27,939 nucleotides of DNA. It comes from an uncultured Thermoprotei archaeon. Its GTDB lineage: Archaea > Thermoproteota > Thermoprotei > Thermofilales > B15-G2. The translations under genes were made by a program, and so were the position numbers. Each line of letters starts with the position of its first letter. The first letter of the stretch is position 1. The notes below the pieces were generated by a model that made no database searches, was not told where the DNA came from, and was given only the letters and a program-made list of their open reading frames with translations. The DNA is taken from positions 1 through 27,939 of the forward strand of contig CBDUKN010000028.1 in the NCBI GenBank assembly GCA_965367815.1, read 5' to 3'. This document shows positions 10,664-27,939 of the stretch, in pieces.

Positions 10664-12190
10664 ATGCTATCAACAACTATTAAGAAAGCAGCAGAAGTCC
10701 TCTTAAAGTTACCTAAAACTGAAACAGACTATTTCTTAGCCTCAAGATCATTGCCTTATCCAGTACAAAAAGCTTTAGAAAAACACCTTGAAGAAGGAAA
10801 AACAGCCTTAGAGAAAGCCGCAGGATACTCTATCGTAGGAGAGAGAGCAGTAGCACTGATATTAGACAGAGACCTGTACTCAGGTACAAGCACACTTAGC
10901 TCACTTTCTTTCACAGGAATTCGTGGAGGACTTGTAGCAGTAGTACTAGAAATGTTTGATGACATAAGGTTCTTTGCAGAGAAAATAGGTTTACCCTGTG
11001 TAGACTACAATCCCCGAAAGCCTATCATAAAATACGTAAACACAGTTTTAGACTACTCTGAAGCAACGGAACTACCCTTCATACTAAGAGTACCGCTATT
11101 CTCGCTAACTGAAGCACTTATTGGTGAAGACTCTACGAAAAGAGTGCATCCAAGACCTTACTTCAACAAACACTGGCTAAGACCCTACCGTTGGAATATC
11201 ATAGCTAGCAGAAATCTTGAAAAAAGCATAGCAGATCACGAGAGAAACTTAAAAGTACTAGAGAAGCTGAGCACAGAGCTTGAAATCAACGAAGTAGAAG
11301 AAAAGGACTCCAGAAAAGTAGCAGTTATCTCGGCAAGCTGCAGCCAAGAAGCACCAGAAGAAGGAACTACTATTACTCTAGCTTTTATGAACCCCTTCCC
11401 AAGAAAAATACTAGAGAAATATTTTGCTGAAGCCGAAGAAATCACAGTAATTGATTCAGGAAAACTCTATATTAGAGAAAAAATAGGGCTAAATGAAGTC
11501 AAAGTAAAGAAAATCGAGCAAAAGTACGAAAAAATATGCGGAGGCTGCCCCTTCCCCTACTTACTTTACGCAGTAGACAAAGCTCTCAGTGAAGAAGATG
11601 AAGTAGGAGTAGTATGCGTAGACATGAACTGCTACACACTAGTATTCACTACACAGAGACCTTTCCCTGAAAACTACCAAATAAAGTCGACAAGCTTCTT
11701 CCAAAAAGACTTCAGAGATACAGCAGACGTAGTGCTCTCAGAAAATTCTTCAATAAACATAGCTAAAGCAGTAGCCGAAACAGGCTACCAAGATGGACCA
11801 GTAATAGCTATAACAGACCTCCATAAAGCAAAAAGCGCCAAAAACCTACCAGCCAACCTCTATATAATTGCAGTAAACACTCTCGGCGAAAAACACGAGT
11901 TCAGAAAACTACCATCGAATCTAGACGACCTAGTCAGGCAGCTAACTGAAATATTTAAAACAGAAGACAACTGCATAGCAGTACTAGATAAACCGTGTCC
12001 TTTAATAACAGAAAATAGATGCAACTCAATAGAAATAGATGAAGAGTTATGTGACAAATGCGGAGAATGCCTCAAACTTCTATGCGAAGCGCTTACACTA
12101 GAAGGAGGACACATAGTAGTCAAAAAAGAATACTGCAGAAAATGCAGCTACTGCGTCGAAATATGCTCTAGAAACGCTATAAAACTATAG
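10664..12190 (+). CDS. Divergent indolepyruvate:ferredoxin oxidoreductase alpha (IorA)-like protein with C-terminal 2x[4Fe-4S] ferredoxin domain
   Basis: LPFILR, CGGCPF (cf. CPGCPH), DMNCY (cf. DIGCY) and C-terminal CDKCGEC...C / CRKCSYC...C; the TPP-binding GD(S/G) motif is not recognisable. Confidence 0.65.
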   Translation: MLSTTIKKAAEVLLKLPKTETDYFLASRSLPYPVQKALEKHLEEGKTALEKAAGYSIVGERAVALILDRDLYSGTSTLSSLSFTGIRGGLVAVVLEMFDDIRFFAEKIGLPCVDYNPRKPIIKYVNTVLDYSEATELPFILRVPLFSLTEALIGEDSTKRVHPRPYFNKHWLRPYRWNIIASRNLEKSIADHERNLKVLEKLSTELEINEVEEKDSRKVAVISASCSQEAPEEGTTITLAFMNPFPRKILEKYFAEAEEITVIDSGKLYIREKIGLNEVKVKKIEQKYEKICGGCPFPYLLYAVDKALSEEDEVGVVCVDMNCYTLVFTTQRPFPENYQIKSTSFFQKDFRDTADVVLSENSSINIAKAVAETGYQDGPVIAITDLHKAKSAKNLPANLYIIAVNTLGEKHEFRKLPSNLDDLVRQLTEIFKTEDNCIAVLDKPCPLITENRCNSIEIDEELCDKCGECLKLLCEALTLEGGHIVVKKEYCRKCSYCVEICSRNAIKL

Positions 12191-12409
12191 CTACTCTTCT
12201 TTTCTGAGAATAGTCACATTTATTACATGTAGCGCCACTGCTACACCTAAAGCAGCAGCAGACACTAGCGAAATAAGCTTAACACTCTCATAAAGCGGCG
12301 TATACTCGAACGAAGGCAAGAGCACAAAATACAGATAAGCAACGAACATCAAGTACAGCAGTATATTGACGATAGCTAGTGCCTTAGGAAAATCTATCCT
12401 CTTCTTCAC
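12191..12409 (-). CDS. Small two-helix membrane protein of unknown function
   Basis: 72 aa, basic N-terminus, two long hydrophobic segments; TATA-like TTATTAAG upstream on the minus strand. Confidence 0.65.
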   Translation of the reverse strand: MKKRIDFPKALAIVNILLYLMFVAYLYFVLLPSFEYTPLYESVKLISLVSAAALGVAVALHVINVTILRKEE

Positions 12410-12763
12410 ATAGCTCTAATCGCCGTATAAGCTTAATAACCTTTTTCCGTATACTTCCATTAATTTCCAGTGCTACAGTAAGACACTCTATACTTTCTCT
12501 TCGGTATAAAAATTACCTCATTTAAATAAGAATATCACCAAAAGCTCTGCATCTTTTTAGCCTCTTTAGAAATTTTCTCTCGCGATTAACTTGAAGTAGC
12601 TACAGTAATAGCATTTAAACAAATTACAGACTACTATTAATAAATACCTTAAATTCATCTACCTTCAAACTCTTCTTTAAGGTACATTCTGGAAATTTCT
12701 TACATCTAAAAAGATTGATATATTCTAAAACATTACATAACTTTTCATATTTTTTCTATTTTC

Positions 12764-12806
12764 AGTTAAATTATTTAACTTAAGTAGGTCTTTTATTTAA
12801 CTTAAG
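12764..12806. repeat. ATTTAACT motif in three copies (one inverted, two direct)
   Basis: AGTTAAAT-T-ATTTAACT inverted repeat at 12764-12780; TTATTTAACTTAAG directly repeated at 12771-12784 and 12793-12806. Confidence 0.6.
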
Positions 12807-12819
12807 AAATAGCTCAAAT

Positions 12820-12877
12820 CCCTCTCCTAAATGCCTTCTAATCATCAGTCATCGTAACTCTGATCGATCATCGGGCT
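12820..12877 (-). ncRNA. Probable box C/D methylation-guide sRNA with two guides to 23S rRNA H69-H71
   Basis: Minus strand reads AGC-CCGATGA(C)-TCGATCAGAGTTACG-ATGA(D')-CTGATGA(C')-TTAGAAGGCATTTAG-GAGA(D, non-canonical)-GGG. The guides are complementary to GUAACUCUGA and AAAUGCCUU, recalled as neighbouring conserved crenarchaeal 23S segments. Confidence 0.7.
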
Positions 12878-13009
12878 AAAATAAATTCCTTAAAAGAAAA
12901 CTTAAGCTTAACTCTTCTACTCGCAAAAACTAAGGCCAACATTTAGGTACAGAATAACTAAAAGAAAAGAAACAAAATCTAATATTTTGACTCAGAAGGA
13001 GAAGCATTA

Positions 13010-13045
13010 GGCACCAAATTTTTATAAAAATGGAGCTCTATAGTA
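13010..13045. repeat. Left copy of 36-bp palindromic inverted repeat, overlapping the ATPase TATA box
   Basis: GGCACCAAATTTTTATAAAAATGGAGCTCTATAGTA; 28/36 identical to the reverse complement of 14453-14488. Confidence 0.8.
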
Positions 13046-13051
13046 CATACC

Positions 13052-14356
13052 GTGATAGATAAGGAACTTGTAAAAAGATATATTGTCGAGTTTCGTAGAA
13101 GGGATTTCTCTGATGTTAAGAGAAGAGAATTAAAAGTTGAATTTATTAAAGGTAAAGCAATATGTATTGTCGGGCCTAGGAGAGTTGGAAAAACCTATTT
13201 CCTTTACTCATTGATGATGAATCTAGAGAACCAACTTTACGTTGATTTCGAGCACCCAGTCTTCTATAACGTTTCTCCGAGAGATATAATTCATATAATT
13301 GACTCCTATTTCGAGCTATATCCAGAAAGAAAAAATCTCTATGTATTTTTGGACGAGGTTCAAGCAGTAGAAGATTGGGAAAGGATAGTGAGATACCTAC
13401 TAGATAGAGGTTTTTATGTTGCAGTAACAGGGTCTTCGTCTAGATTAATGTCACATGAAATAGCTACACATCTTAGAGGTAGATCCATAACATATTACTT
13501 ACTTACTCTAAGTTTTAGAGAAGCTTTAAATTTTAAAAATATAGAACATAAGGGAGAAAACTTCTATTTAAATTATAGCAAAATTAAAGGACTTATATCG
13601 GAGTACCTGAAATATGGAGGTTACCCAGAGGTTATTCTCTATGATGTAAAGGAGAGGGTCTTAAAAGAATATCTTAACTTAATAATAAGAAGAGATATTA
13701 TTGAAAGATATAATATCAGAAATAAGCATCTAATAAATGAATTAATATACTTTGCAATAAATAATTATTCTAGATACATTTCCTATGATTCGCTTCTTAA
13801 GCTTTTTAAACAAAGACTAAACGTTACTAAAAGAACTATAATTAACTACTTGTCCTACTTTGAGGACTCTATGCTATTCTTCTTTCTAAGGAGATTTGAA
13901 CCGTCTATTAAGTCTAGAATTGTTTCTCCAAGGAAAATTTATCTAATAGATACAGGTTTCGGAATTTTCGGAAATAAAAGCATTTCAAGAGATATGGAAA
14001 ATGCGGTATTCTTAGAATTACTAAGAAGAAAATACTACTTTAATCCATTATGTGAAATATACTACTTTAAGGACTCCCAAGGACATGAAGTAGATTTCGT
14101 AGTGAAAGAAGGTGATAAAGTAAAAGAGTGTATAAATGTGACATATGCTAGTGGCTTTGATGAAATCGATAAAAGGGAATGGAGAAGTTTATTGAAGGCA
14201 AGAGAGGTATTAGGATGTAGTAAGCTAACTATAGTGACATGGGACTACGAGGACAAAAAAGAATTAAGCTGGTTTGGAAGAAGAGGAGAAATAAGTTTTG
14301 TTCCACTATGGAAGTGGCTGCTACAAATTCCTAGTAAAGAAAGAAGAAGATATTGA
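13052..14356 (+). CDS. AAA+ ATPase, COG1373 type (AAA_14 + DUF4143)
   Basis: Walker A GPRRVGKT, Walker B VFLDEVQ, TGSS, YLKYGGYPE, RKIYLIDTG, ENAVFLEL, EVDFVV; visibly more AT-rich than the flanking core genes. Confidence 0.92.
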   Translation: MIDKELVKRYIVEFRRRDFSDVKRRELKVEFIKGKAICIVGPRRVGKTYFLYSLMMNLENQLYVDFEHPVFYNVSPRDIIHIIDSYFELYPERKNLYVFLDEVQAVEDWERIVRYLLDRGFYVAVTGSSSRLMSHEIATHLRGRSITYYLLTLSFREALNFKNIEHKGENFYLNYSKIKGLISEYLKYGGYPEVILYDVKERVLKEYLNLIIRRDIIERYNIRNKHLINELIYFAINNYSRYISYDSLLKLFKQRLNVTKRTIINYLSYFEDSMLFFFLRRFEPSIKSRIVSPRKIYLIDTGFGIFGNKSISRDMENAVFLELLRRKYYFNPLCEIYYFKDSQGHEVDFVVKEGDKVKECINVTYASGFDEIDKREWRSLLKAREVLGCSKLTIVTWDYEDKKELSWFGRRGEISFVPLWKWLLQIPSKERRRY

Positions 14357-26757: not shown

Positions 26758-27939
26758 GTGATTAACATTAAAATAGTAGTTGCAAACTATGCGTGGAACC
26801 ATCTAGGCGGGGCAACTTTAGTTTGTGCTCATGCAGCAAAAGCTTTTCTCGATAAAGGTTTCGACGTCATAGCAGTCTCACTGACCAACTTCAATAAAAA
26901 TGAATATTTAAAAGAATATGGTATAGATTTAAAAAATATTAAAGTATACTCGCTAATTTCAAAAGATCCCTCAGCTTTTAGTCTCTACTATAGACTCATA
27001 TACTGGATTCCTTTAATGAAAGCAATTAAAAAAGAAAAACCTCAAGTACTTTTCACAGACGTAGAACTTTACAAACCTGTACTAAAACTCAAAAAGAAGA
27101 TCGGTTTCAAAATACTAGAATATATACACTTTCCCTATGTAGTAGAAAAAGATAAGATAAATGAACTACCGATAGAATACATAAAAGCTCTAAAGGAATA
27201 CTTAGGAGAACTAAAAACTCAATACAAGAAATACGAAAAACATCTTTGGAAATACTACTATAAATTCTGGCTAAAACTTTACAAAAAAGTAGCTAGAGAA
27301 AACCCCTTCCACTACGCTGACGTAGTAATGTCCAACTCAAAGTACACTGCTAGGTTATCGAAAATAGTGTGGGGTAGAGAGCCAATAGTTCTAAATCCTC
27401 CCGTTAAAATAAAAGATTTCACTAAATATTCTACAAAATCAATTGATCAAAGAGAAAATGCTGTTGTTATGATAAGTAGAATATCTCCAGAAAAAAGAAT
27501 AGAGGAAGCAATAGATGCAATAGCATTAACCAAAACAAAACCACTACTTAGAGTAATAGGAAGAATATCACCATATAATATAAAGTATAAAAAATACTTA
27601 GAGAGAAAGGCTAAAGAAAAAAACATTAAAATAGAATTTCAGTGTGATGTTCCTAGAGAAAAATTAGTAGAACTTATAGCGAGGTCGAAAATATTCATAC
27701 ACACTACAAGAGGAGAACACTTCGGGATAGCAGTAGTTGAAGCAATGGCTGCGGGACTGCCAGTTATTGTCCATAAAAGTGGAGGCCCCTATGAAGATAT
27801 AATAGACTATGGAAAATACGGAATGTTCTACGAAAATTTAGTTGACCTTTCTCAAAAAATAGATGAATTATTAAAAGATTCAAAATTATGGACAGAATAT
27901 CATAAAAAATCCATAGAAAGGGCAAAAGATTTCGATGAG
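26758..27939 (+). CDS. Glycosyltransferase family 4, ALG11-like (3' truncated by window edge)
   Basis: Not in ORF track. Frame +1 is open to the window end: KIVVANY...GGA, EYIHFP, SNSKYT, LNPPV, SRISPEKR, GEHFGIAVVEAMAAGLPVIVHKSGGPYEDII. Confidence 0.9.
   Translation, partial: MINIKIVVANYAWNHLGGATLVCAHAAKAFLDKGFDVIAVSLTNFNKNEYLKEYGIDLKNIKVYSLISKDPSAFSLYYRLIYWIPLMKAIKKEKPQVLFTDVELYKPVLKLKKKIGFKILEYIHFPYVVEKDKINELPIEYIKALKEYLGELKTQYKKYEKHLWKYYYKFWLKLYKKVARENPFHYADVVMSNSKYTARLSKIVWGREPIVLNPPVKIKDFTKYSTKSIDQRENAVVMISRISPEKRIEEAIDAIALTKTKPLLRVIGRISPYNIKYKKYLERKAKEKNIKIEFQCDVPREKLVELIARSKIFIHTTRGEHFGIAVVEAMAAGLPVIVHKSGGPYEDIIDYGKYGMFYENLVDLSQKIDELLKDSKLWTEYHKKSIERAKDFDE

Follow-up and report, generated by a model that had tools for sequence, protein, structure and literature searches.

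The window analysed here is a stretch of 27,939 nucleotides, contig C28 of a draft assembly of 2.45 Mb (37 contigs, about 39% G+C, 99.4% complete by marker genes) from an uncultured Thermoprotei archaeon. Between positions 12410 and 13051 it holds no open reading frame (ORF) of at least 40 amino acids. The neighbouring ORFs encode a 508-aa protein with C-terminal 4Fe-4S motifs (10664-12190, plus strand) and a 434-aa ATPase of the AAA_14/DUF4143 type (13052-14356, plus strand), the latter matching AAA_14/DUF4143 with E values of 6e-32 and 4e-20. Next to the first of these, a 72-aa ORF on the minus strand (12191-12409) gave zero Pfam matches and may not be a real gene. On its minus strand, the intergenic segment reads from position 12880 downward UUUAGCCCGAUGAUCGAUCAGAGUUACGAUGACUGAUGAUUAGAAGGCAUUUAGGAGAGGGAUUU. 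Judging from this sequence and its relatives, the part from about 12876 to 12820 is very probably an archaeal dual-guide box C/D sRNA gene with two adenosines of 23S rRNA as predicted targets. Its parts are given in Table 1.

Table 1. Parts of the predicted box C/D sRNA gene in the window, in 5' to 3' order.
Feature	Position	Strand	Remark
TATA-like CTTAAG, putative promoter element	12901-12906	minus	-30 to -25 from G12876; -35 to -30 from the C-box start
Whole predicted box C/D sRNA, about 57 nt	12820-12876	minus	ends deduced from the terminal stem
5' terminal stem CCC	12873-12875	minus	pairs with GGG 12822-12820
Bulge G	12872	minus	between the 5' stem and the C box
C box AUGAUCG	12865-12871	minus	U2, G3 and A4 form the k-turn core; UGA invariant in 19/19
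D' guide AUCAGAGUUACG, 12 nt	12853-12864	minus	U12857 is position 5, predicted to face the H69 adenosine
D' box AUGA	12849-12852	minus	UGA invariant
D'-C' linker CUG, 3 nt	12846-12848	minus	family range 3-11 nt among the matches listed
C' box AUGAUUA	12839-12845	minus	UGA invariant; U6 pairs with A1 of D'
D guide GAAGGCAUUUAG, 12 nt	12827-12838	minus	U12831 is position 5, predicted to face the H71 adenosine
D box GAGA	12823-12826	minus	GA core retained, invariant in 19
3' terminal stem GGG	12820-12822	minus	partner of CCC

A dual-guide box C/D sRNA had been proposed at this place in a sequence-only reading of the window, and the proposal is upheld by the architecture of the locus, its conservation, its covariation and the match of the guides to the 23S rRNA of relatives. 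The strings from which it was built are all present on the minus strand, namely CCGAUGA (12874-12868), AUGA (12852-12849), CUGAUGA (12848-12842) and GAGA (12826-12823), and so are the CCC/GGG ends (12875-12873 and 12822-12820) and the two plus-strand strings within the spacers (12854-12863 and 12829-12837). The alignments described below show that the boxes are better parsed 3 nt further 3' than in that reading, and this shift gives canonical 12-nt spacers and a D'-C' linker of 3 nt. About 12 nt is the usual spacer length in archaeal box C/D sRNAs. Under the shifted register, the C-G pair between C6 and D1, the U-A pair between C'6 and D'1 and the CCC/GGG stem all form in the window. The weak points of the sRNA are that C and C' deviate from RUGAUGA in their last three letters, that the D box is GAGA, and that the stem has only 3 bp.

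We searched the genome of 2.45 Mb with a regular expression for this architecture, in which the 3-bp stem and both box pairs were required, and found 3 loci genome-wide; 12820-12876 is the only one of them in which a guide is complementary to the 23S rRNA of a relative over 9 nt or more. The features of the sRNA are far beyond chance expectation. The search for archaeal sR families in Rfam that the sequence-only reading had called for came out negative, with 0 families at gathering score over the whole window, and the sRNA thus lies outside any curated Rfam CD-box family. A permissive Rfam scan of 12600-13100 gave two CD-box matches below threshold, sR58 with 13.8 bits and snoZ103 with 14.2 bits. 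The sR58 family (RF01308) has a similar box layout, but its gathering score is 55 bits and its guides differ, so that the window sRNA is no member of it.

To describe the conservation of the locus, we searched 41 genomes, the source genome and 40 relatives, by BLAST with a 141-nt query spanning the site. A genome of the same genus matched at 89% identity over query positions 7-105 (E 3e-30), a span that begins in the promoter-like region and ends at 12816, shortly after the 3' stem, and 16 further genomes of the same order, belonging to several families, matched at E < 0.01 over the sRNA core alone (query about 49-98). The window and 18 extracted homologues, all of the same order, were aligned. 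The results showed that the columns invariant in these 19 sequences were three UGA triplets, the terminal GA, UCAGAGUU (the core of the D' guide) and AGG.AUU (the core of the D guide). These columns are exactly those in which a C/D sRNA would have its box cores and its two guide cores, and this supports the register given in Table 1. C6 and D1 were paired in all 19 sequences (CG 7, UA 7, AU 3, GC 2), D'1 and C'6 in 17, and each of the three box-proximal stem pairs in 16, with changes on both sides. Over the terminal stem and the box-box pairs of the 19 sequences, the covariation was 0.569 compared to 0.194 +/- 0.034 in shuffled alignments; none of 500 shuffles reached the observed value, and slid controls stayed at or below 0.245.

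A pattern of the invariant letters was then scanned over one genome per prokaryote species and matched at least 118 stretches, 80 of which are listed, and all 80 share the same box and guide layout. Pooled with the first 19, they gave 99 sequences, with 85 distinct cores among the matches listed. Because the search pattern fixed the guide cores and the TGA and GA box cores, the conservation of these letters in the 80 scan loci follows from the search itself; the pattern put no constraint on the box-pair and stem positions. At these unconstrained positions, C6-D1 was paired in 84 of the 85 cores among the matches listed, C'6-D'1 in 75, and the three box-proximal stem pairs in 79-82, again with changes on both sides. 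The covariation of the whole structure over these 85 rows, among the matches listed, was 0.604 compared to 0.184 +/- 0.015, with none of 500 shuffles reaching it and slid controls at or below 0.187.

The targets of the two guides were taken from relatives, since the source assembly has only the 3' end of its 23S rRNA gene. A search with RF02540 gave no match for the H69-H71 region in the source genome, and motif scans found only the 23S 3' end, with its sarcin-ricin loop motif, at positions 1 to about 420 of contig C4, where that contig starts; the 16S motif was not found in the motif scan of the source assembly. The 10-nt H69 target string occurs in six copies in the source genome, none of them within rRNA. 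In the 23S rRNA of three relatives (G004, G005 and G012), both target strings are present 25 nt apart, and the three sequences do not differ in this region. With the 23S rRNA of G004, the D' guide has an unbroken run of 10 Watson-Crick pairs at guide positions 2-11, position 5 included; of 20,000 shuffled guides, 36 performed as well. For the D guide, the run is 9 pairs long and covers positions 3-11, again with position 5; position 1 is paired too, whereas position 2 is mismatched. A run of 9 nt was reached by 309 of 20,000 shuffled guides. By the N+5 rule, the predicted target of the D' guide is the second A of GUAAC in H69, and that of the D guide is the third A of AAAU in H71. The expectation that this rule would place both targets on adenosines therefore agrees with the 23S rRNA of the relatives. 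It had been based on a crenarchaeal 23S sequence of which the two target strings match the relatives and the flanking letters are slightly different.

Among the 33 predicted tRNAs of the source genome, the best runs of complementarity were 7 nt and 5 nt, and tRNA targets were rejected. Two further observations concern the target sequences. The 23S rRNA of another relative, G002 (L030, contig C37), departs from the other three between the two target sites; in its match, 1,551 model positions are stretched over about 2,900 nt, which suggests one or more insertions, for example rRNA introns, including one between the H69 and H71 targets. The same contig bears the sRNA. A copy of the 10-nt H69 target string also lies in L003 (G000:C24, about 26880-27120), a stretch with stops in all six frames and several UGA/CUGA-like motifs, which may be another small RNA.

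We take the E. coli equivalents of the H69 and H71 targets to be A1913 and A1938. The alignment numbering in PMC4644070, where E. coli A1912 is position A2178, agrees with this. For yeast 25S rRNA, the table of PMC5699541 gives Am2256 (snR63), pseudouridines 2258, 2260, 2264 and 2266, m5C2278, Am2280/2281 (snR13) and Gm2288. Counted from the first target A, the archaeal sequence has U at +2, +4, +8 and +10, C at +22, A at +24 and +25, and G at +32. All the yeast modifications listed in that table thus fall on the right letter, indicating that the second archaeal target (+25) corresponds to A2281, and the proposed equivalence of the two targets to yeast Am2256 and Am2281 is supported by the 25-nt offset together with the matching letters at the other modified sites in the table. 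Yeast snR63 and snR13 share with the window sRNA the two rRNA positions and the type of guide RNP, but they are two separate snoRNAs, and the comparison is one of target position. The human counterparts of snR63 and snR13 are SNORD46 and SNORD15.

Guides to both sites have been listed in other archaea, and helices 68, 69 and 71 are described as methylation hotspots by Dennis et al. 2015 (PMC4644070). In Additional file 1 of that paper, sR91 of Ignicoccus hospitalis and sR113 of Sulfolobus acidocaldarius carry the same H69 guide core, CAGAGUUAC, with 23S A2179 as the predicted target. A2179 is the equivalent of A1913, since E. coli A1912 is given there as A2178. In these two sRNAs, the H69 guide precedes the D box, and its partner guide is directed to G2211 in I. 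hospitalis and has no predicted target in S. acidocaldarius (PMC4644070), whereas in the window sRNA the H69 guide precedes D' and is partnered by the H71 guide. The same supplement lists I. hospitalis sR109 and S. acidocaldarius sR125 with the same H71 core, AGGCAUU, and the target 23S A2204, 25 nt after A2179; here the H71 guide is partnered with a guide to G2172. In both species, the two guides accordingly stand on different sRNAs in the supplement of PMC4644070. The sR40 family of Pyrobaculum has the H71 core AGGCAUU as a 10-nt D' guide next to a different D guide (PMC6009581, Supplementary Table S1), and the H69 guide string has 0 occurrences in the Pyrobaculum supplement of that paper.

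As far as these supplements go, both sites, both guide modules and the type of RNA are already known. The suggestion that one archaeal sRNA covers two eukaryote-type sites holds in that both guides are on one RNA. The window sRNA is not alone in covering these sites, however, since the same guides are already listed in the supplement for S. acidocaldarius and I. hospitalis. In the literature searched, in two supplements and in Rfam, we found no description of the two guides together on one RNA or of the breadth of that arrangement; the supplements of PMC7994747 may list more sRNAs for these sites. A literature search, mostly at the level of abstracts, gave no experimental mapping of both sites in archaea.

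The source genome encodes the partner proteins of such an RNA. A fibrillarin gene (PF01269, E 2e-103) is adjoined by a Nop5 gene (PF01798, E 4e-75) on contig C4, and two genes belong to the L7Ae family (PF01248). Tandem G.A pairs, a uridine of box C and the stem II pairs are named in PMC7994747 as three features for L7Ae binding. In the 19 aligned sequences, U2, G3 and A4 of C and G3 and A4 of D are invariant and C6 and D1 are paired, as in a k-turn. The other hallmarks of a C/D sRNA, a terminal stem, C' and D' with a short loop, spacers of about 12 nt, complementarity at position 5 and partner proteins, are found as well. In the mechanism that we propose, after the established L7Ae-Nop5-fibrillarin sRNP, the CCC/GGG stem would close the C and D boxes into a k-turn, while the C' and D' boxes would form a k-loop, and L7Ae, Nop5 and fibrillarin would assemble on both motifs. 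Each 12-nt spacer would base-pair with 23S rRNA, and fibrillarin would 2'-O-methylate the nucleotide that faces guide position 5, counted upstream from D' or D. The D' guide would thereby direct the modification to the second A of GUAAC in H69 (E. coli A1913, yeast A2256) and the D guide to the third A of AAAU in H71 (E. coli A1938, yeast A2281). We infer that transcription, RNP assembly and methylation take place in the source organism.

The same pairings could serve another purpose. With targets only 25 nt apart, the sRNA might act mainly as an rRNA folding chaperone that holds the H69 and H71 strands of nascent 23S rRNA, methylation being secondary or dispensable. About 45% of the Pyrobaculum sRNAs aim both guides at close sites, which PMC6009581 reports under a folding-chaperone heading, and the idea also appears in PMC7994747. 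Position 5 is paired for both guides in all 85 cores among the matches listed under the 12-nt parse, but it lies within the letters that the pattern fixed in the 80 scan loci. A chaperone role is compatible with a role as a methylation guide; as the main function of the RNA, we consider it improbable, and we prefer the dual methylation guide.

The parse of the first reading can be judged against the same alignments. It took CCGAUGA as box C and CUGAUGA as box C', with 15-nt spacers, no loop between D' and C', and a weak or decaying D guide. Both strings do exist in the window, GAUGA precedes the spacer in 44 of the 85 family members among the matches listed, and in two Bathyarchaeia-labelled members (L052 and L058) a canonical C-box motif and stem seem, by eye, to lie 3 nt upstream. 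A 15-nt spacer therefore exists in the family, but rarely: among the matches listed, a parse based on UGA gives 12 nt for both spacers in all 85 cores, and 83 of the 85 fit the 12-nt register. In the register of the first reading, the GA of the C box varies, being AA or AG in G033, G010 and G027, whereas in the shifted register G010 and G027 read GUGAUGU and GUGAUGA. In the window, the first register leaves no terminal stem and sets G against G at C6 and D1 and G against A at C'6 and D'1; the shift brings in the stem and both pairs, all of which covary, with C6-D1 paired in 19/19 and, among the matches listed, in 84/85. We therefore regard the first parse as very unlikely to be right and retain the 12-nt register, in which the invariant UGA triplets of the C and C' boxes are positions 2-4 of AUGAUCG and AUGAUUA. 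The 15-nt spacers and the loop of zero length are replaced by conserved lengths of 12 nt and 3 nt; among the matches listed, 44 of 85 cores have a D'-C' linker of 3 nt, within a range of 3 to 11 nt.

The idea of a second guide in decay, tied in that parse to the atypical D box, is not borne out either. The D guide core is invariant in the 19 sequences of the alignment of BLAST-found homologues, and C6 and U5 of the C box provide pairing partners for G1 and A2 of GAGA. Since the C6-D1 pairing covaries across the family, the GAGA box is compensated rather than decaying. The D boxes of the 85 cores, among the matches listed, are CUGA (49), UUGA (10), AUGA (7), GCGA (6), AGGA (5) and GUGA (3), and more rarely GAGA (2), CCGA (2) and UGGA (1).

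Upstream of the sRNA, the TATA-like CTTAAG that had been noted is present at 12906-12901, and the homologue from the same genus has TTTAAG in its place. The A+T fraction upstream of the 85 family members, among the matches listed, is 0.71-0.88 at about -39 to -30 from the C box and about 0.55 further upstream. Such a peak would be expected of an archaeal TATA box lying some 25-30 nt ahead of the transcript, if transcription begins at the terminal stem. TATA hexamers, counted crudely, say less (28 of 85 among the matches listed). Most likely, the sRNA gene has its own promoter, with the TATA-like CTTAAG 30 nt upstream as the predicted element. That the locus is a chance match or a dead relic no longer transcribed in the source genome, as the short terminal stem and the unusual D box might hint, is hardly credible in view of the 89% identity that the same-genus homologue shows from the promoter-like region through the sRNA, up to just past the 3' stem, the family-model score of 65.9 bits for the window sequence and the intact compensating pairs U5-A2 and C6-G1.

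To follow the family beyond the order, we considered the titles of the genomes hit by the pattern scan. Among the matches listed, they include Nitrososphaeria/Thaumarchaeota, Caldarchaeales/Aigarchaeota, Bathyarchaeia, Thermofilales/Thermofilaceae/Infirmifilum, Nezhaarchaeales, Methanomethylicia, Culexmicrobium, Wolframiiraptor and unclassified Thermoprotei. Some titles among the matches listed are odd, namely one "bacterium", one Anstonellales and two plain "archaeon", and there are hints that the odd-titled carriers are mislabelled or contaminated bins. The genomes titled Anstonellales and Methanomethylicia (L081 and L091) have identical sRNA cores, and the MAG titled "bacterium" has an sRNA near-identical to one from a Thermoprotei MAG (L046/L061). 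When the phylum was sampled evenly, 47 of 401 genomes, belonging to 32 of 158 genera, had the exact pattern, and a reversed-pattern control gave 0 in every row listed. Our statements on distribution refer to the phylum Thermoproteota only.

A covariance model of the family (R1) gave one match in the source genome, at 12814-12880 on the minus strand, with 65.9 bits and E 1e-13. Within the class, it matched 43 of 74 genomes at E <= 0.01, 36 of them with E below 1e-8; these 36 comprise 26 of the 28 genomes of the order, with the source genome counted, and all 10 genomes of five other families. In one family of the class the matches were weak (7 of 12 genomes, 25-32 bits), and in another family R1 found none in 24 genomes, many of them complete. 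The latter result would agree with the absence of the H69 guide string from the Pyrobaculum supplement, if that family is the Pyrobaculum lineage. The sRNA family occurs in several classes of Thermoproteota.

The finding is solid but fairly ordinary, the type of RNA and both target sites being known already. It changes no mechanism and opens no long-standing question, and it stands out in one respect, that the gene is retained whole throughout the phylum. The guide sets of archaeal sRNAs are described in PMC7994747 as turning over fast, with no site common to all seven species studied there; a whole dual-guide gene retained across several classes is one of the exceptions to this rapid turnover. 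Its predicted targets lie in the intersubunit-bridge region of H69 and H71, at two sites that are methylated in yeast too. In the widest reading, the gene would have been kept intact across much of Thermoproteota, its two guides unchanged in kind and order, and would stem from the ancestor of the phylum, the separate guides of Sulfolobales and Desulfurococcales and the sR40 of Pyrobaculum would be products of later reshuffling, and snR63 and snR13 would come from the same ancient guide modules. We hold this scenario to be doubtful. If it were true, the sRNA would be one of very few archaeal methylation guides retained as a whole gene. The dual-guide gene could be a marker for the evolution of guides towards eukaryotic snoRNAs. 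For annotation, the gain is an RNA gene that had not been annotated and a usable covariance model for a C/D sRNA family outside Rfam.

The surroundings of the gene gave several minor observations. The orthologous sRNA of G004 (L009:1410-1494) starts a few nucleotides from the 3' end of a tRNA-Leu(CAG) gene, and that of G034 (L013:1414-1489) a few nucleotides from the 3' end of a tRNA-Phe(GAA) gene, which suggests co-transcription of tRNA and sRNA in these two genomes; the window has no tRNA nearby and has a TATA-like element of its own instead. This CTTAAG is overlapped by a palindrome, GTTAAGCTTAAC (12895-12918, core 12901-12912), which could be a candidate binding site for a regulator. Between 14 and 49 nt downstream of the sRNA 3' end, a perfect 14-nt direct repeat, TTATTTAACTTAAG, occurs on the plus strand at 12771-12784 and 12793-12806 with a spacing of 22 nt, and it too includes the hexamer CTTAAG.
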